64,000 nucleotides of DNA from Alphaproteobacteria bacterium (GTDB lineage Bacteria > Pseudomonadota > Alphaproteobacteria > Bin95), in assembly GCA_963665325.3 (NCBI GenBank), contig OZ224045.1, positions 1,632,001 through 1,696,000 of the forward strand. The letters are read 5' to 3'. A program made the translations under genes and the position numbers. The first letter of the stretch is position 1; every line of letters begins with the position of its first letter. Shown one piece after another: positions 19,438 to 27,113 of this stretch. Under the pieces are notes generated by a model that saw only the letters and a program-made list of their open reading frames with translations, was not told the origin of the DNA and made no database searches.

Positions 19438-19581
19438 CCCGAATAACTTTCCCTCATACGGTTATGTTCGTATGGATTGCCTCTTCTACCGTCCATCCCG
19501 TGGGCGGTGAAGGTCCCCGGGCAAGCGCCGGTGGACGGGGTTCATCGATACTCGAGACCGGTTGTCCAGACGGCGAGGGAG

Positions 19582-20475
19582 ATGACGATGCGTGTTGCCG
19601 GGTATTGGTCGCTGGCATTTCTGATGCTGTTGCTGGCGCCGGCGGCAGCGGTCGCCGGCGACCTGCACATTGCGGCCTGGAACCTGGAGCATCTGGACGA
19701 TACCGACGGCGAAGGGTGTGTCGGGCGCAGCAGCACCGACTACGCCGCGCTCGCAAGACAGATTGAGGAACTGGGCGCCGATATCGTCGCTTTCCAGGAG
19801 GTGGAGGACGAGGCGGCCGCGCGCCGCGTGTTCCCGGCCTCTGAATGGCACATCGAGATGTCCGGGCGCCCGCCGATGGAGCCCAGCCGGGCCTGCTGGG
19901 GCAAGCCTGAGGCGCGTCTCGGGCATCTGGCGACGGGGTTCGCGATCCGGAAGGGCATTCGTTATCGGCGCAACGCCGATCTGAAGGTGCTGGGAGGCGA
20001 GGACGCTTTCCAGCGCTGGGGTGTCGACATCGCAGCGGGCGCCGGTGGGGAGGAGCTGCGCCTGCTGTCCGTGCATCTCAAGACCGGCTGTTGGGGCAGG
20101 AAACAGGACCGGGACAACAGAAGCAGGAAAGCCTGCGCGACGCTCCGGGGCCAGATCGAGAGCCTCAGGGCCTGGGTCGACGCCCGCCGGGCCGAGGAGG
20201 CAGCTTTCGTCATCCTGGGCGACTTCAACCGCCGTCTGGCATTGCCGGAGGACTGGGCCTGGCGTCTGTTGTCTCCGCCATCGGCGCCGCTTCTGCTGCT
20301 GACCGAAGGTGTGCCGTTCCGTTGCGACCCACGTTTCCCGGCCTTCATCGACCACATTGTGGAAGGCGGCGGTGCGGAGGCGATGCGGGTGGCGGGCTCG
20401 TTCCGGGAATGGCCGCGCGGGGGGCCGCACCCGGATCACTGCGCCGTGTCTGCGGTCTTCAGGGTAGGACCATAG
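19582..20475 (+). CDS. Secreted endonuclease/exonuclease/phosphatase (EEP) family protein
   Basis: Signal peptide, AAWNLEHL, AFQEV, VHLKTGC, ILGDFN, IDH and PDHC. Confidence 0.88.
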   Translation: MTMRVAGYWSLAFLMLLLAPAAAVAGDLHIAAWNLEHLDDTDGEGCVGRSSTDYAALARQIEELGADIVAFQEVEDEAAARRVFPASEWHIEMSGRPPMEPSRACWGKPEARLGHLATGFAIRKGIRYRRNADLKVLGGEDAFQRWGVDIAAGAGGEELRLLSVHLKTGCWGRKQDRDNRSRKACATLRGQIESLRAWVDARRAEEAAFVILGDFNRRLALPEDWAWRLLSPPSAPLLLLTEGVPFRCDPRFPAFIDHIVEGGGAEAMRVAGSFREWPRGGPHPDHCAVSAVFRVGP

Positions 20476-20789
20476 GGCACTGCCGGCGAGTTGCGACAGG
20501 CTGAACTGCTGCCCGACCTGCGGCTTCCTGTGACTGCTGAGAGTGGCGGTCAGCTCTCCAGCGGGAGATGGCTGTCTCCTGTTCCGGCTCCCGGTCGAGC
20601 TCAATCGACACGCGGGGCGCAGACGACCGCACATCCCGGGATGGTTCCGGACGCCTGCGGCGCGGTGCCCGGGGCTCGATACCTGCCCGGCAACTACCGA
20701 GAAGGCAGGCTCCGGGTCCGATGCATCGCTCTTGCGGCCATCGCCCGTTGGCGCTCGCGCCGCATACGGTCTTCAGTTGGCGCTGCCAG

Positions 20790-20993
20790 CATCTGGAGCC
20801 GGCAAAGCTACTGCCGACGCCAGCGGATACCGAAACGTCTCCCTCCAGGCGGATCCGAATTGCGCTTGCGGACGGCTCGCGTGTGACGGTCGACCGGGAC
20901 GTGGACGCGGCGGTGCTGTCGCAGGTGCTCGGGGTTCTGGAGCGGCGATGATCCCGGTTCCGAGCGGGGCGCGGGTCTGGCTCGCAACCGGAG
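20790..20993 (+). mobile_element. IS66 remnant (tnpA 3' end / tnpB 5' end)
   Basis: IALADGSRVTVDRDVDAAVLSQVLGVLERR* overlapping (ATGA at 20948) MIPVPSGARVWLATG. Confidence 0.8.
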
Positions 20994-20994
20994 T

Positions 20995-21097
20995 AGCGGA
21001 GTGGAGCTGGGCAGCCGACTAGGCATGATAATCGCCTCCGGGATGGGCGGCCGGAATCCAAGACTGCTGTGGAGGCGCACGGCGTTGTAATGGCGCC
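20995..21097 (-). mobile_element. IS3-family transposase 3' remnant
   Basis: HYNAVRLHSSLGFRPPIPEA matches the IS3 C-terminal YNxxRxHSSLGYxxP motif. Confidence 0.7.
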
Positions 21098-21367
21098 CCT
21101 GACGGTGCATGCTAGACCGCTATAAGCGAGTTGACTCAGGATTAGATTCTTGGGTTTCACGGGTAAGGATTTGTCGGAATCATGAGACGTCGACGACTCG
21201 TAGAGACGCAATCGGCCCGTGAGGGAGTGGGCCCCAAATTTCCGACATCGTCATCTGGGAATGCTCTAACGGGCTACGCAAGGTCATGACCGTCCAGATA
21301 ATGAGACAAAGGCAGTGCCTATATTCGTTGATGTAAGTCAAATGGTTGCGAGTCAGAGGTTATACAA

Positions 21368-21802
21368 ATGGTAAACAAATTGTTTAAGTTATTGTCGCAA
21401 GTAAAGTCAGTCACTGGAGATGATTTTTCGGGCTTAGGATTGATCATTTGTGACACACCGGAATTCCTCCCTATTGTGCCAATACGCCCCGTGAGCTCTC
21501 CGCCAAGTAAGTTCAATCTAATTGATTCACTCGTCAGTATCTCGACCTTGGACAGTGAATATCATGATGGCTTCCATATACTATCATCCGACTGGACATT
21601 GAGCCGAATATCTCAATACTTTTTGCCACCGATTGTCAATGGTGTAATTGTTGATCGGAGTAAGACCTTTGGTGGTCGCTATATTGCAGCACTGTTCGGA
21701 TCGGCAATACCAAACGTGCGACTGTCAGGAATAGCAAGTAAAGGGTTCGGAATCGCGATCTTTAAGGACGGCGCAGAAACATATTTCCAGGATGCACTAT
21801 GA
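21368..21802 (+). CDS. Stand-alone diadenylate cyclase (DAC/DisA_N)-fold protein with divergent active site
   Basis: GLGLII...EYHDGFHIL...ISQYFLPP...FGGRYIAALFGS...IASKGFGIAIFKDG aligns by eye with the DAC consensus GALIV...LHDGAVII...AxCxLP...LGTRHRAALGIS...VVSEETGxISIAxNG. GAGG RBS; AT-rich. Confidence 0.75.
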   Translation: MVNKLFKLLSQVKSVTGDDFSGLGLIICDTPEFLPIVPIRPVSSPPSKFNLIDSLVSISTLDSEYHDGFHILSSDWTLSRISQYFLPPIVNGVIVDRSKTFGGRYIAALFGSAIPNVRLSGIASKGFGIAIFKDGAETYFQDAL

Positions 21803-22401
21803 TTGGACTTGTACCAATAGGCCGATTTATTGCGCTTGTCGCGGTGTTGTATGCTGTATTAATTTCTGGTTTTGTAGCCGCAGCAGTCGAGTTCGGAGAT
21901 GATTCATGGTCGATTTGGATCAATTTCACATATATATTCTCCGGGGCCACATTACTCCAAATTCTGCTCGCGCTGTCGTTTTGTTATGGTTGGAGGCACT
22001 TGTGGCGATGGTTTCCGACTCTAAATCATTTACTATACCCGGACCTGGGCGGAGAGTGGGACATCAGAATTCATTGGCAAAGCTCTACGGACGATGGGAC
22101 TATCGATGCAAGAGCAGTGGTCCGGCAGAATTTCTTGCAAGTAAGTATGGAGGTATTGTCTGAGAATTCTGATTCAAAGACTCTGATCGCACAGCCCAGA
22201 AAAGATCCGGAATCTGGAACCCCATTCTTGTACTATGTATACCAAGTAAATCCAAAATTCATTGGACCAGAACACAACGAACCTTACTTTGGGGCTGCAA
22301 TCTTGAAGTATTCTCAAGTTGAAGAAGGGGGAAATTTGAGTGGAAATTATTGGACAACTAGAGCGACTAGAGGCCACTTTAACCTAAGGCGTCAAACATA
22401 G
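21799..22401 (+). CDS. Cap15-like 2TM + beta-barrel (S-2TM-beta) nucleotide-sensing membrane effector
   Basis: Two N-terminal TM helices, WRHLWRW..PDLGGEW, VRQ..VSM, SxS, LYYVYQVNP, GAAIL and LSGNYWT.R..G; ATGA overlap with the DAC-like gene. Confidence 0.85.
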   Translation: MIGLVPIGRFIALVAVLYAVLISGFVAAAVEFGDDSWSIWINFTYIFSGATLLQILLALSFCYGWRHLWRWFPTLNHLLYPDLGGEWDIRIHWQSSTDDGTIDARAVVRQNFLQVSMEVLSENSDSKTLIAQPRKDPESGTPFLYYVYQVNPKFIGPEHNEPYFGAAILKYSQVEEGGNLSGNYWTTRATRGHFNLRRQT

Positions 22402-22435
22402 AAATGTTGGACAGGCGGTATTCGCTGACCGCGGC

Positions 22436-23302
22436 TTACCTGCGGAAACGCGGTGTCCAGCGCTCCTCCATATCCTCATCTTCCTCGTCAGGTTCATCGT
22501 CGGCAAATGCGCTCGAAGAAAGTACCGTTAGCGTCTTGCCGTATCGTCCGAGGCCAATCGTCTCCTCGGTGCCCGGCAGGGAACGAGGACCGCCGAACCA
22601 GTCACGAAGATCGACGTCCACATGGCTGCGGTGGGCTCGAAGGATATTTTCGGGATTACGATTGAAGAGAGCGGTCTCAATGCCGGCCGGCAACGGCTGC
22701 CCCTTGCGGAGCCATTCAAGGCCGCTGATGTCCTGAAGGCTCTTGGACATGAAGCAGTAGTCGACCGAATCGCCGGTGCTTACTACGACGGCGACCGGCA
22801 CCGAGGCTGTTTCGGCATATCGGATCGCCGTGGCGGTCAGCGAGGTGCAGCACTCGCGCGCCATGCCTTCGACCGCTTCGAGCCCGTCGCCGAAGCGACG
22901 GACTCTTCGGGAAAAGTGGGGATCGGGCATCAGCAAGCCCGCGGCAAAATGATCGGCTTCCAGTTCGAAGCGATCGCCGGAAACGAAGCCGGCTTCGGAT
23001 GCATGAACTCCATCGCCGGACGGGAAGATGTGATCGACATGGCCGTCCAGCACGTAGTGACCGATCTCGTGGGCAATACTGAACCTCTGAAAGCCTTCAT
23101 TGTCGATGTGGGTGGCGTACATGATCCCGAACATGTCCTGATGGCGGACCAGCATGCCGGAAACACCACCCGCCGTGTCCGGCTTGGGCTCCACGACGAT
23201 GTCGAGGCTCTCGGCGATCATGATCGGATCGACGGGGAGGCTGGCGATGCCCCGGTCGGCGAGGAACTTCTCTGCCTTACGCTTTGCCATTTGGTATCGC
23301 AT
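22436..23302 (-). CDS. ImmA/IrrE-family Zn metallopeptidase (CapP-like)
   Basis: LPVDP, RFSIAHEIGH (HExxH), E.EADHFAAGLLMP and SLTATAIRY; downstream of an XRE gene and divergent from CBASS. Confidence 0.88.
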   Translation of the reverse strand: MRYQMAKRKAEKFLADRGIASLPVDPIMIAESLDIVVEPKPDTAGGVSGMLVRHQDMFGIMYATHIDNEGFQRFSIAHEIGHYVLDGHVDHIFPSGDGVHASEAGFVSGDRFELEADHFAAGLLMPDPHFSRRVRRFGDGLEAVEGMARECCTSLTATAIRYAETASVPVAVVVSTGDSVDYCFMSKSLQDISGLEWLRKGQPLPAGIETALFNRNPENILRAHRSHVDVDLRDWFGGPRSLPGTEETIGLGRYGKTLTVLSSSAFADDEPDEEDEDMEERWTPRFRR

Positions 23303-23314
23303 AGGCCTGACCGT

Positions 23315-23671
23315 TCACGCACCCTCTCCGCCACGCTTCTTGCGGTCGGAGAGCATCTTCATGAAAGAGTGGGCGAGATCGCGATCCGAGGAAGACAGGT
23401 TCTTGAAGTCCCGGTAGAGCGGATCGGCGTCGGCATAGGCTTCCGGATCGTCAACACGGCCCAGCAAGTAATCGGTCGTCACCTCCAGGGCGTTGGCGAG
23501 TCGGCGCAGGTTCTCGAAGGAAGGCTTACGGGAGCTGGCTTCGAAATGCGAGATCGAGGACGGGGGCAGGCCCGACTTCTCCGCCAAGGCTGACTGGTCC
23601 AATCCCCGCATCTCACGCGCGATCCTCAGCCTTTGAGGGAAGGCATCCGAGGGGATCGGATCCTCGGACAT
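23315..23671 (-). CDS. XRE-family HTH regulator (CapH-like)
   Basis: RLRIAREMRGLDQSALAEKSGLPPSSISHFEASSRKPS...VTTDYLLG; start at ATG 23671. Confidence 0.9.
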   Translation of the reverse strand: MSEDPIPSDAFPQRLRIAREMRGLDQSALAEKSGLPPSSISHFEASSRKPSFENLRRLANALEVTTDYLLGRVDDPEAYADADPLYRDFKNLSSSDRDLAHSFMKMLSDRKKRGGEGA

Positions 23672-23737
23672 GTCGATTTCACGATCTGTCACTTGACGTT
23701 CTCGCCATCCAAGTCCATGTATATTCCGACACAGTTT

Positions 23738-23757
23738 GCATGGCGAAGTCGCCATGC
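23738..23757. promoter_or_regulatory. Palindromic candidate operator in the capH/CD-NTase divergent promoter
   Basis: GCATGGCGA-AG-TCGCCATGC with perfect 9-bp arms; a further half-site TCGCCATCC at 23702. Confidence 0.55.
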
Positions 23758-23822
23758 GCAACTCATGGTGCTGCCCGGCGTTTAGGAGCAGGACTGGACC
23801 GGGTGCGGAGAAGGATAGCGGA

Positions 23823-25082
23823 ATGACAAGCAAGAACTATCCACTGCAACAGCCACTAGCCGATCCGGTGGACCTGTTGCTTGCCGACGTAGCGATCAGG
23901 GTGCAGCTGTCCCGGACCAATTACAGCAAGGCAATCGAACGGTACGAGACGATTAATGCCTGGATCGAACGCGACGGAAGTCCGCTGAAGGACCGGATTG
24001 TGCGGTTCTACCCCCAGGGTTCGATGGCGATCGGGGCGACGATCGCTTCGAAGCTGCGGACCGACGAGTTCGATATCGATGTCGTCGCACAGCTTGGTCT
24101 GCCGCTGAGCGTGTTGCCGAAAGACGCCTTGGATCTTTTGTTCCAGGCAATCCGAGGGGAACCGGGGTCGCGCTATTACCGGATGGTGGAACGTCGGACG
24201 CGGTGTGTCACGGTGCACTACGGAAACGATATGCATGTCGACGTGACGCCGGTGCTGCGCATGCTCGGTACGGCGGCGAGGCAAAGCCTGATCTTCCATC
24301 ACAATGAAGAATCGCCGCAGGATCCGGGGGATCGGTTGATCGCGAATCCCTACGGATTTGCTGAGTGGTTCAAGCTGAACACGCCGAACGACCAAGCCTT
24401 CGCCGAAATCTTCGAACAACGGGCTTGGGAGTACGAGGAAGCGTTGCGCATCCTTGCGGAGAAGGCCGAGAGCGAGCCTGTGCCTTCGCAGGAACCGGCG
24501 TTCCGGAAATCCAAGGCGGTCATCGTGCTGCAGCTTCTGAAGCGCTGGCGCAACGTTCAGTATGACGCGCGGTTGGGGCGCAAGCCTCCGTCGATCATGT
24601 TCGCCAAGCTGATCGCGGATGCGGCGAACCATACGGACGGGCTCTCGAAAGAACTGCTCCACCAGGCTCGGCACATGCTGGACGAGTTCCGCCGTTGCCA
24701 GGAGCTGGGGCGCCTCGTCCACATCGCCAACCCCGTTTGCGCCGAAGATGTTCTGACCGACCGGTGGCCAGGTAGCCTGCGTGACCAGGCAATCTTCATT
24801 GGCGACCTCGAGCACTTGGTCCGGCAGATCGAGCGCCTGATCGAGGGGTGCGACTTGGACGAAATGCAGAAAATAATGGCCGAGCTGTTCGGCGAGGCGC
24901 CGACGGGAGAAGCCTTCCGGAGCTTCAACGAGAAGGTCGGCGGCATGGTGCGGGAAGGCCAGAGTCGGCATCGCACCGGCACGGGCGGGCTGGTCTTGCC
25001 GGGTGCTGCTGCGGTCGTCGCGACGCCGTCTTTGGCGACGCCCAGGCACACGTTCTTCGGTGCGGACGACGACGACCGATGA
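23823..25082 (+). CDS. CBASS cGAS/DncV-like nucleotidyltransferase (CD-NTase)
   Basis: YPQGSMAIGAT...EFDIDVV, MHVDVTP, ANPYGFAEWF, QLLKRWRN, PPSI, IANPV and a C-terminal HTFFG followed by ADDDDR. Confidence 0.9.
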   Translation: MTSKNYPLQQPLADPVDLLLADVAIRVQLSRTNYSKAIERYETINAWIERDGSPLKDRIVRFYPQGSMAIGATIASKLRTDEFDIDVVAQLGLPLSVLPKDALDLLFQAIRGEPGSRYYRMVERRTRCVTVHYGNDMHVDVTPVLRMLGTAARQSLIFHHNEESPQDPGDRLIANPYGFAEWFKLNTPNDQAFAEIFEQRAWEYEEALRILAEKAESEPVPSQEPAFRKSKAVIVLQLLKRWRNVQYDARLGRKPPSIMFAKLIADAANHTDGLSKELLHQARHMLDEFRRCQELGRLVHIANPVCAEDVLTDRWPGSLRDQAIFIGDLEHLVRQIERLIEGCDLDEMQKIMAELFGEAPTGEAFRSFNEKVGGMVREGQSRHRTGTGGLVLPGAAAVVATPSLATPRHTFFGADDDDR

Positions 25083-25537
25083 CCCTGTCGATACGGGCAC
25101 AGATGGACCGGATGGGCCGAGCCTGGCCGGATTTCAGGGTTCTTGGCGCGACGGATTGGTTGGCGACCTGGGAAGGGTCGCTCCGGCCGCTGGCCATGCG
25201 CTACAGGGTGCGCGTATCGATGTGTTTCGGCAGGCAATTGAGCAATGCGGTGATCAGGAGTTATGCGCCCCGGATCACGGTGGTCTCTCCAATCCTGCGC
25301 CGGCGACCGGAACAGCCGGAGCAGCCGATCCCGCACATCTACCCGAACAGGTGTTCTCCCGACCGCCCGATCCTGTGCGTCTACCTTCCTGGGGCGGGGG
25401 AATGGGATTGGCGCGATGCGGTGGCCGACACGACGATCCCTTGGACCATCGACTGGCTGGCCTGTTACGAGGGCTGGCTCGCGACGGGAGAGTGGGCGGG
25501 CGGAGGCGTTCATCCGACAAAGGAGCGGGCGGCGTGA
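25079..25537 (+). CDS. CBASS E2/UBC-like protein (short type II Cap2)
   Basis: WEGSLRP, PHIY...LCVY (catalytic Cys), TIPW..WL..YE.WLATGEW.GGG.HP; ATGA overlap with the CD-NTase. Confidence 0.85.
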   Translation: MTLSIRAQMDRMGRAWPDFRVLGATDWLATWEGSLRPLAMRYRVRVSMCFGRQLSNAVIRSYAPRITVVSPILRRRPEQPEQPIPHIYPNRCSPDRPILCVYLPGAGEWDWRDAVADTTIPWTIDWLACYEGWLATGEWAGGGVHPTKERAA

Positions 25538-26625
25538 TGCCGGCGCCGGTGGGCGAAGGGTCGCCGAGACGGTCGTCGGGGGCGCTTGATCGTCGCCGTG
25601 TTCCGCTTCCTTGGCCGGAGGATCGGCCGTTTCGCATTCTTTCAATCGACGGAGGCGGCATTCGGGGTATCTATCCCGCCGCTTTCCTGGCGGAGCTCGA
25701 ACGGCGCTACCTTGGCGGGGAATCCGTGGCGCGGCACTTCGATCTCATCGCGGGGACTTCGACCGGCGGGATCCTCGCCGTGGGCCTGGGAGCGGGCATC
25801 ACGGCCGCAGAGTTACGCGACCTCTATGTCAATCGTGGATGCGAAATCTTCCCGCCGATCAGGCCGAGAGCGCTGGAGGGGATCCTCCGACGGTGCCGGA
25901 GCGCATGCCAAGTGTTCAAGTACCGATACAACCGAAGAGCGTTGGAAGGAATTCTGAAGGAGACGCTGGGCGAACGGAAGTTCGGAGAGGCAGGGACACG
26001 CCTCTGCATTCCGTCCTTCGATGGTCGGTATGGGGAGGTTTACATCTTCAAGACACCTCATCACCCGGATTTCCGGAAAGATGGGCGTGAGTTCATGACG
26101 AAGGTGGCTGAAGCCACATCGGCGGCTCCGACATTTTTTCGGCCGCTCGAAGACGGCGGCTACACCTTCGTCGACGGCGGGGTATGGGCGAACAATCCGG
26201 TAATGATCGGCTTAGTCGACGCGTTGACCTGCTTTGCGGTCAAGGCGGAGCAGGTTCGGATTTTGAGCGTTGGATGTGGCGACGATCCCTACGTTGTCGA
26301 CCGACGCAAGATTGTGGGAGGCGGCATATGGGCGTGGCGGGACGTGATCTTCGCCGCAATGCGGCTTCAGTCGCAGAACGCCCTCGGGCAGGCGGGGCTC
26401 CTTATCGGCGCCGACAGGATCGTCCGAATCGATGCGCCGACAACCGAGGCGAAGATTGAGATGGACGACTGGAGACGCGCGGTGGACGAACTGCCCGGCG
26501 CGGCGGAAACGGCGACTGACGAAATGGGTCCCGAAGTGGCTGCAAGGTTTCTGCGCGAACCTGCGGTACCGTACAGGCCGATTAGAACAACAGACATCCA
26601 AATGGCCCCGGTTCAGAGCAGATGA
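25537..26625 (+). CDS. capV: CBASS patatin-like phospholipase effector
   Basis: ILSIDGGGIRG, GTSTG, KTPHH, TSAAPTFF and DGGVWANNP. Confidence 0.9.
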   Translation: MPAPVGEGSPRRSSGALDRRRVPLPWPEDRPFRILSIDGGGIRGIYPAAFLAELERRYLGGESVARHFDLIAGTSTGGILAVGLGAGITAAELRDLYVNRGCEIFPPIRPRALEGILRRCRSACQVFKYRYNRRALEGILKETLGERKFGEAGTRLCIPSFDGRYGEVYIFKTPHHPDFRKDGREFMTKVAEATSAAPTFFRPLEDGGYTFVDGGVWANNPVMIGLVDALTCFAVKAEQVRILSVGCGDDPYVVDRRKIVGGGIWAWRDVIFAAMRLQSQNALGQAGLLIGADRIVRIDAPTTEAKIEMDDWRRAVDELPGAAETATDEMGPEVAARFLREPAVPYRPIRTTDIQMAPVQSR

Positions 26626-27113
26626 CGAAGACTGCAATTGGGTGGCCGGGTAGTTGTCAACGGCGGAGCAAGAATGTACCGGCGCGGCGACTGGCCTCGA
26701 CCGCGCACACGGGCTAGGTGGACAAGTCCGGAGCGCCCTATATCGAACACGTGACGAGAGTGTCCCAGGCAGTCGAGATGAAGGTGGCGCCGGAACTGCG
26801 GGACCATGCCGTCACGGTCGCGTACCTGCACGACGTGGTGGAAGACACCAATGTCACGCTGGACTTCATCCGGAAAAGGTTCGGCAACGATGTTGCCGAA
26901 GACGTGGAGACGCTGACACACCGCGACCGCGAGGAGTATCCCGACTACATCAACCGCGTGGCCCGCGGCAGCGCAGCGGCCAGGGCGGTCAAGCTCGCTG
27001 ATCTGGAGGACCATCTGCGCGACACATCACACATCAGAGCCGATCAGGTGGAGAAGTACGTTCAGGCGCTGGCTGTCCTGACCGGCTCCCGCGCACCTGA
27101 TCCTGCCGGGTGA
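26622..27113 (+). pseudogene. HD-domain hydrolase (Mesh1/SpoT-like) with in-frame amber codon
   Basis: ATG 26622 overlaps the capV stop. Reads ...LASTAHTG*VDKSGAPYIEH...YLHDVVEDT...VKLAD; the TAG at 26715-26717 replaces the Gln of the AHxGQxDK motif. Confidence 0.8.

Follow-up and report, generated by a model that had tools for sequence, protein, structure and literature searches.

A probable PanS-PanE guard pair with an unusual lid residue next to a CBASS operon in an alphaproteobacterial genome

Two preprints of 11 August 2026 describe the same two-gene antiphage system, in which a nucleotide synthase, PanS, is paired with a membrane effector, PanE. Ragucci, Haley and Kranzusch name it Panoptoo (bioRxiv 10.64898/2026.08.10.743927), and Nabhani, Sullivan et al. 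name it PanDA (PMC13640721). Here we describe a gene pair that is very probably a member of this system, located at positions 21368-22401 of a 64,000-nucleotide stretch of alphaproteobacterial contig OZ224045.1 (positions 1,632,001 to 1,696,000 of the forward strand; hereafter, the window). According to Ragucci et al., minimal diadenylate cyclase (DAC) proteins of about 150 amino acids (aa) are encoded in two-gene operons with S2TM-beta proteins, and the effector is toxic on its own, whereas the complete operon is tolerated. The product of PanS co-purifies with the enzyme; it was 3′3′-cyclic UMP-AMP (cUA) in nine of 11 homologs and 3′3′-cyclic di-AMP (c-di-AMP) in two, and toxicity is triggered by Acb4 of phage SPO1. 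In the R. etli PanS (RePanS) structure from the same study, the residues that hold the backbone are D71, G72, G107 and R108, and the lid (A86-I93, including S90) is flexible, with two conformations that fit adenine or uracil.

According to Nabhani et al., about 50% of PanDA systems have a cyclic oligonucleotide-based antiphage signalling system (CBASS) no more than 10 genes away, and this CBASS generally includes ubiquitin-like machinery and either a patatin or a 2TM-beta effector. They further report that the GC content of PanDA is about 10% under that of the host and that the system defends against Acb4-encoding Schitoviridae. In their experiments, the substitutions D68A and R105A abolish the activity and rescue function of EcPanS, and EcPanE binds c-di-AMP (7.7 µM) and not cUA. 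Two other papers, PMC13069673 (NAR) and PMC13092281 (DefensePredictor), deal in the passages retrieved with the large DAC of CBASS-DAC, or DS-2, and not with the minimal pair. Ragucci et al. state that the minimal proteins had also been flagged by language-model studies.

A first-pass annotation of the window, made from the sequence alone, had proposed that two AT-rich genes form an antiphage module in which a third synthase fold is coupled to an S-2TM-beta effector. This architecture agrees with the published PanS-PanE system. Both open reading frames (ORFs) are on the plus strand and begin with ATG, and the bases they share (Table 1) and their AT-rich composition are as described. When searched as a single sequence against a 2026 file of PDB sequences, the first protein matches entry 37jy_A, annotated as 'Panoptoo PanS synthase' (147 aa), with an E-value of 7e-34 over residues 2-137, and a profile of its family matches the same entry with an E-value of 2.3e-49. 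Entry 37jy is the crystallised R. etli PanS, which makes this a direct sequence match. The next entries in the profile search are only weak matches to DacM (0.026) and CdaA (0.18). The identity and fold of both proteins, the operon structure, the CBASS neighbourhood, the foreign base composition and the lack of another DAC in the genome together lead us to assign the pair, with high but not complete confidence, to the PanS-PanE guard system.

This assignment removes the label of a new module that the pair had been given. The annotation had itself named a match to an already described system as the outcome that would end this claim, and such a match is what we find; its caution that a recent description might exist proved apt, given the two preprints. 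The discovery value is therefore gone, as August 2026 saw the system made public together with its mechanism, products and two crystal structures.

The synthase has the DAC motif order noted earlier and consists of a single domain. A structure predicted with AlphaFold2 (AF2) from a family alignment of 33 members (alignment A1) forms one compact DAC-fold domain with a predicted TM-score (pTM) of 0.88, and no transmembrane segment is evident (maximum Kyte-Doolittle mean over 19 residues of 1.31). Comparison of this model by Foldseek with a PDB copy holding entries to April 2026 yielded 70 matches at E≤0.001, and among the matches listed the top rows are DacM, CdaA/DacA and DisA entries together with one structural-genomics entry, with TM-scores of about 0.6-0.66. 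Residues D67, G68, G102 and R104 and the entire HDGFH motif are present and are invariant in alignment A1. Other residues invariant in this alignment include F20, G22, G24, P35, Q83, Y84, P87, F101, Y105, A107, A108, G111 and S112. The fold and the weak profile matches to DacM and CdaA establish PanS as a divergent DAC.

In a protein collection clustered at 90% identity, 196 of 220 candidates belong to the PanS family at E≤0.001, and most are about 144 aa long. Existing labels in the family comprise one 'DAC domain-containing protein' (UniRef) and two DisA annotations (JGI). Clustering at 50% gives 262 representatives at the same threshold. Six representatives of 300-440 aa (P0190, P0191, P0230, P0251, P0260 and P0264) carry a PanS-like domain at one end, and these could represent fusions, or relatives of the minimal DAC that are bound to the membrane. 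Searches of the window PanS against Pfam, NCBIfam and PADLOC (2023) returned nothing at E≤1, which reflects the dates of these libraries and the divergence of the family rather than novelty.

The second protein has the two transmembrane helices and beta-barrel attributed to it earlier. The Pfam family Cap15_CD_rec matches residues 80-198 with an E-value of 1.2e-15, and 17 PADLOC models for CBASS '2TM effector' proteins match, the best with an E-value of 3.7e-26. The AF2 model (mean pLDDT of 89.4) includes helices at residues 7-32 and 39-71 and eight strands across residues 85-198, and the two helices are in line with hydropathy peaks whose centres fall at residues 10-25 and 50-55. Foldseek at E≤0.001 retrieved only three chains of the Yersinia aleksiciae Cap15 receptor (7n34; TM-score of 0.86 on the target, root-mean-square deviation of 2.2). 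The window PanE departs from positions conserved at 80% or more only at Y80 (F) and V108 (I), and both changes are conservative.

Table 1. Features of the panSE pair and of the adjoining CBASS genes, in window coordinates.
Feature	Coordinates	Strand	Description and basis
panS	21368..21802	+	Minimal diadenylate-cyclase-fold synthase, 144 aa; PDB 37jy match E 7e-34, AF2 pLDDT 92.7, best Foldseek E 4.8e-06
HDGFH motif (H66-H70)	21563..21577	+	D67/G68 correspond to catalytic D68/G69 of EcPanS and D71/G72 of RePanS; invariant in A1
Leu86 codon TTG	21623..21625	+	Lid position, Ser in family (RePanS S90; alignment offset +4)
GGRY motif (G102-Y105)	21671..21682	+	G102/R104 correspond to G103/R105 of EcPanS; replaces canonical RHR
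ATGA start/stop overlap	21799..21802	+	Couples panS to panE; 4 shared bases
panE	21799..22401	+	2TM + Cap15-type cyclic-dinucleotide-receptor beta-barrel effector, 200 aa; Pfam, PADLOC, AF2, Foldseek
capP	22436..23302	-	IrrE/M78 peptidase; PADLOC capP 2.2e-63, Pfam Peptidase_M78; convergent with panE, 34-bp gap
capH	23315..23671	-	XRE-type helix-turn-helix repressor; PADLOC capH 1.3e-25 (residues 63-165 of long ORF); longest ORF to 23833, likely start ATG 23671
CD-NTase	23823..25082	+	PADLOC cyclase PDLC00800 2.5e-153; longest ORF from 23736, likely start ATG 23823
E2-like (Cap2-short)	25079..25537	+	PADLOC E2 7.6e-46; ATG overlaps CD-NTase stop
Patatin-like phospholipase effector	25534..26625	+	PADLOC 9e-115, Pfam Patatin 5.6e-24; start GTG 25534 or ATG 25537

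The base composition sets the pair apart from its surroundings. GC content is 0.46-0.48 over positions 21000-22500 compared to 0.64-0.69 in the flanks. At third codon positions (GC3) it is 0.428 in both panS and panE, 0.69-0.77 in the next five genes, which belong to a CBASS, and 0.76-0.80 in three host genes. Overall, the pair has a GC content of 0.44, the neighbouring CBASS 0.59-0.61 and the host 0.67-0.69. This composition and the lack of PanS in the relatives searched point to a foreign origin of the pair, and the intermediate GC content of the CBASS suggests that the two were acquired separately. A search for repeats at the insertion borders gave short imperfect pairs only, which we regard as chance. 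Between the last host-like gene, an EEP-family member at 19477-20475, and panS, the stretch 20459-21340 contains no convincing gene. Its sole family match is a weak tail of an rve_3 integrase core at 20808-21110 on the minus strand (E 0.0039), and the stretch is probably debris of a mobile element, marking the island's left boundary.

A search of 40 relatives (16 from the same genus, eight from the same family and 16 from the same class) did not turn up PanS in any of them. In addition, the genome of origin (5.58 Mb in five contigs, 100% complete) yielded no match to the Pfam DAC family PF02457, whereas the same search was positive in 11 of 14 control genomes. This result agrees with the statement of Nabhani et al. 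(PMC13640721) that no genome with PanS also holds a non-immune DAC. These observations bear on the idea that PanS is a housekeeping c-di-AMP synthase serving osmotic or cell-wall homeostasis. Such a role would be consistent with the DAC fold and with the production of c-di-AMP reported for some PanS homologs. However, the absence of the gene from the 40 relatives searched, its foreign composition, its lack of a regulatory domain, its overlap with a toxic effector gene and its position beside a CBASS leave this idea with almost no chance of being correct.

Scanning one genome per species located PanS homologs at 36 loci, which belong to Bacteroidota and to Alpha-, Beta- and Gammaproteobacteria. 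The pairing is conserved in that an ORF of at least 100 aa abuts PanS in 35 of the 36 loci. The 4-nucleotide overlap seen in the window recurs in 22 loci and direct abutment is found in eight. Pfam Cap15_CD_rec matches 36 of the 37 proteins encoded downstream of PanS, the window included, so that a Cap15-type gene comes after PanS in 35 or 36 of the 36 other genomes, and the GC content of the pair is below that of its own flanks in 33 of the 35 loci that hold a pair. Within 8 kb, a CD-NTase-like ORF is present in 22 of 36 loci and a patatin-like ORF in 8 of 36, counts that derive from uncurated iterative profiles built from the window proteins, which may have drifted. At locus L016, the CD-NTase-like and patatin-like matches overlap on opposite strands, and at least one of them must therefore be spurious. 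Single-sequence phmmer searches with the window CBASS proteins against the 36 loci gave matches for the CD-NTase in four, the patatin in eight, CapP in one, CapH in two and E2 in none.

Some of these loci have additional features. Six of them (L010, L012, L017, L024, L025 and L031) carry a second Cap15-like ORF near PanS-PanE, with a CD-NTase-like ORF beside it in all but L031 by the uncurated profiles, and these look like CBASS-Cap15 operons guarded by PanSE. Two of the 36 copies appear degraded: in L003 (6798-7444) the PanE frame is split in two, and in L036 (8001-9036) only 49 aa of PanS are left and PanE is broken in two.

Several points weigh against the identification of the pair or against the function it implies. 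The first-pass annotation had expected structure searches to return DisA_N and S_2TMBeta; Foldseek does place PanS with DAC entries and PanE with Cap15, but the Pfam DAC model PF02457 (DisA_N) does not reach E≤1 on the window PanS. The canonical DAC motifs are altered, with DGA replaced by DGF and RHR by R-Y-I, although these changes are traits of the PanS family and not peculiar to this copy. No sigma-70-like promoter was detected 5′ of panS in a promoter and terminator scan, which yielded two sites, both intragenic, a number no higher than in shuffled sequences (mean 2.3). The lid position 86, which is Ser in all 155 close homologs that have a residue there, is Leu in the window, and because a base-contacting Ser is replaced, the product or activity could differ. 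A contig from run X6, which stems from an RNA library of a different study, does not prove transcription of the locus, since such libraries can hold DNA and the contig is about 97% rather than 100% identical. As to the physiological signal, the preprints are at odds: it is cUA for Ragucci et al. and c-di-AMP for Nabhani et al. (PMC13640721). Finally, the published decoy-guard mechanism, although the best-supported account of the window pair, is extended to this copy from homology, anatomy and context.

The Leu86 substitution deserves closer attention because it is the sole departure of the window PanS from positions conserved at 85% or more. Among other family members of the G103/A107 type, position 86 is Ser in 191 of 194 and Ala in three, and Leu occurs elsewhere only in one sequence, a 104-aa fragment. 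A contig from run X5 covers 21577-21727 without any difference, and the X6 contig covers 21507-21846 and has no difference at 21624; the presence of the same allele in both argues that Leu86 is not an assembly slip. By codon reading, five of the eight differences listed for X6 are synonymous and the other three (V90I, N91D and V93A) fall directly after the lid. Neither the contig gaps in X4 and X5 nor the low shares of runs X6-X8 are informative on absence or habitat, and run X1 may be the source of the window itself.

Ragucci et al. (bioRxiv 10.64898/2026.08.10.743927) found that RePanS S90 contacts the bases in the crystal structure and that the equivalent S85 of VcPanS is dispensable for activity. 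The lid Ser is a feature that the window PanS lacks, and neither paper treats it as defining the system. Conceivably, the lineage-specific change from Ser to Leu, which takes one base (TCG to TTG), may move the decoy signal, for instance from 3′3′-cUA to c-di-AMP or another dinucleotide, although we think it rather unlikely that it does so. If it did, Leu86 would be a natural specificity switch that retunes which phage sponges the guard detects. A rule that would have predicted the product from residues 86, 103 and 107 was dropped, because S/G/A is found at these positions in two Bacteroidota loci (L034 and L035) as well, yet a Flavihumibacter PanS is reported to make c-di-AMP (bioRxiv 10.64898/2026.08.10.743927). 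Since an intact PanE would be toxic without ligand, PanS with Leu86 presumably remains able to supply one that PanE binds, provided that the operon is not silent. The variant could serve as an inexpensive probe of what decides between cUA and c-di-AMP as output, the matter on which the two preprints differ.

A silent or decaying copy without a current role in defence, or a pair that acts mainly as a small-molecule toxin-antitoxin (addiction) module stabilising the island, would accommodate the unusual Leu86 and the lack of a promoter-like site upstream. Broken copies do exist elsewhere, at L003 and L036, and the combination of a toxic PanE with a protective PanS, as described for homologs, is formally the logic of addiction. 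We nevertheless judge these explanations improbable. Both ORFs are intact and all catalytic residues are present, the changes in PanE are few and conservative, most of the X6 differences leave the protein unaltered, and homologous operons protect against phage (PMC13640721). We infer that the PanS-PanE copy in the window is active.

If the results for homologs carry over, PanS, a DAC domain without a regulatory domain, would dimerise and constitutively make a 3′3′ cyclic dinucleotide, either cUA or c-di-AMP or both. The Cap15-type barrel of PanE would bind this dinucleotide, and binding would keep the two-helix membrane effector inactive. A phage sponge or another protein that removes cyclic dinucleotides, brought to evade the neighbouring CBASS (Acb4 and probably proteins of the Acb2 type), could then strip PanE of its ligand. 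The ligand-free effector would be expected to permeabilise the membrane and abort the infection. That synthesis is constitutive, that PanE is repressed and that Acb4 acts as a trigger are literature results for homologs that we extend to the window pair by analogy.

The first-pass annotation had left a choice between this decoy logic, known from Panoptes, and an activating logic in which PanS is silent until infection and its product then switches PanE on. The latter has a precedent in CBASS, whose Cap15 effectors are activated by their ligand. A protein of 144 aa that consists of the DAC fold only has no sensor or regulatory domain through which infection might be registered. Moreover, experiments on homologs show that PanE is toxic alone and is rescued by active PanS, that PanS co-purifies with its product, and that sponges trigger toxicity. 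The decoy option is thus the one that experiments favour, and activation upon infection is very hard to sustain for this pair.

A complete CBASS, which the first-pass annotation did not mention in its finding on the pair, begins 34 bp downstream of panE. Judged from its genes, the interval 22436-26625 holds a full CBASS of the E2-only (short type II) kind that is regulated by CapH/CapP and comprises a CdnG-like CD-NTase (cGAS/DncV-like nucleotidyltransferase) and a patatin effector. The nearest solved relatives of the CD-NTase are PDB entry 7ljn, also a CD-NTase (5.9e-69), followed by CdnG (1.3e-16). The CD-NTase, E2 and patatin genes diverge from capP and capH and, by their likely starts, are translationally coupled. 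A further ORF lies at 26622-27113 on the plus strand, with its ATG overlapping the stop of the patatin gene. Its frame is interrupted by a TAG at codon 32, and the part beyond it (26718-27110) matches Pfam HD_4 (3e-07); the CBASS operon may thus have had a fourth gene that is now broken. The presence next door of a CBASS that has E2 and a patatin effector matches the published PanDA context (PMC13640721).

The proximity of the two modules raises the question of whether PanE is a second effector of the CBASS that answers to the CD-NTase product, with PanS as an accessory. The small distance to capP and the Cap15-type barrel of PanE are in keeping with this idea, and 73.4% of 617 surveyed S2TM-beta effectors belong to CBASS (bioRxiv 10.64898/2026.08.10.743927). 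However, the CBASS is complete with its own translationally coupled patatin effector, which argues that the AT-rich pair is a separate module. The pair is also convergent with capP and hence forms a separate transcription unit, and its GC3 of 0.43 is far from that of the CBASS genes. Furthermore, the uncurated profile detects nothing CD-NTase-like within 8 kb in 14 of the 36 PanS-PanE loci, so the pair is also found with no CD-NTase in its vicinity. We consider the second-effector explanation highly improbable.

Comparison with other cyclic-nucleotide systems places the window pair more precisely. Like the housekeeping enzymes DisA, CdaA and DacM and like DS-2C/CdaG of CBASS-DAC, PanS has the core DAC fold with Asp-Gly and Gly-Arg catalytic residues. 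Unlike those proteins, it has no TM, helix-hairpin-helix, DACNG or DACNH domain, carries DGF instead of DGA and RYI instead of RHR, has an extended flexible lid and falls below the Pfam DAC threshold. DS-2C, at about 550 aa and encoded within a CBASS operon, contrasts with the minimal PanS. PanE resembles the effectors of CBASS-Cap15 in that its barrel matches the Yersinia aleksiciae Cap15 and the PADLOC CBASS 2TM models recognise it. A CBASS-Cap15 operon, however, has a CD-NTase, whereas the partner of the window PanE is PanS, and the convergent capP and capH genes separate the pair from the nearby CD-NTase operon. In addition, the ligand activates in CBASS-Cap15, but represses in PanE homologs.

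Panoptes, formed by the mCpol synthase OptS and the effector OptE, is closer in logic. This is likewise a two-gene system in which a Cap15-type 2TM-beta effector is held off by a constitutive decoy nucleotide, and it guards CBASS against phage sponges, the role proposed for the window pair. The synthases differ, as mCpol (minimal CRISPR polymerase) has a Cas10 palm-like fold and the window synthase has a DAC fold. Their products differ as well, with 2′3′-c-di-AMP or else cA3 (cyclic tri-AMP) made in Panoptes and 3′3′-cUA or 3′3′-c-di-AMP made by PanS homologs (bioRxiv 10.64898/2026.08.10.743927).

The closest resemblance is to Panoptoo/PanDA itself. Shared features are a synthase of about 145-150 aa that consists of the DAC domain only and carries the HDGFH and GGR motifs, an S-2TM-beta effector gene directly 3′, an adjoining CBASS with a patatin effector and ubiquitin-like machinery, a GC content under that of the host, and a genome without another DAC. 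Apart from Leu86 in place of the lid Ser, no difference was found at a conserved PanS position. The system is one that has already been described, and the window locus is unremarkable among its members apart from one unusual residue in the lid. It is also a clean natural example of a guard, in which an apparently separately acquired PanS-PanE pair sits beside a CapH/CapP-regulated, E2-only patatin CBASS in a high-GC genome.

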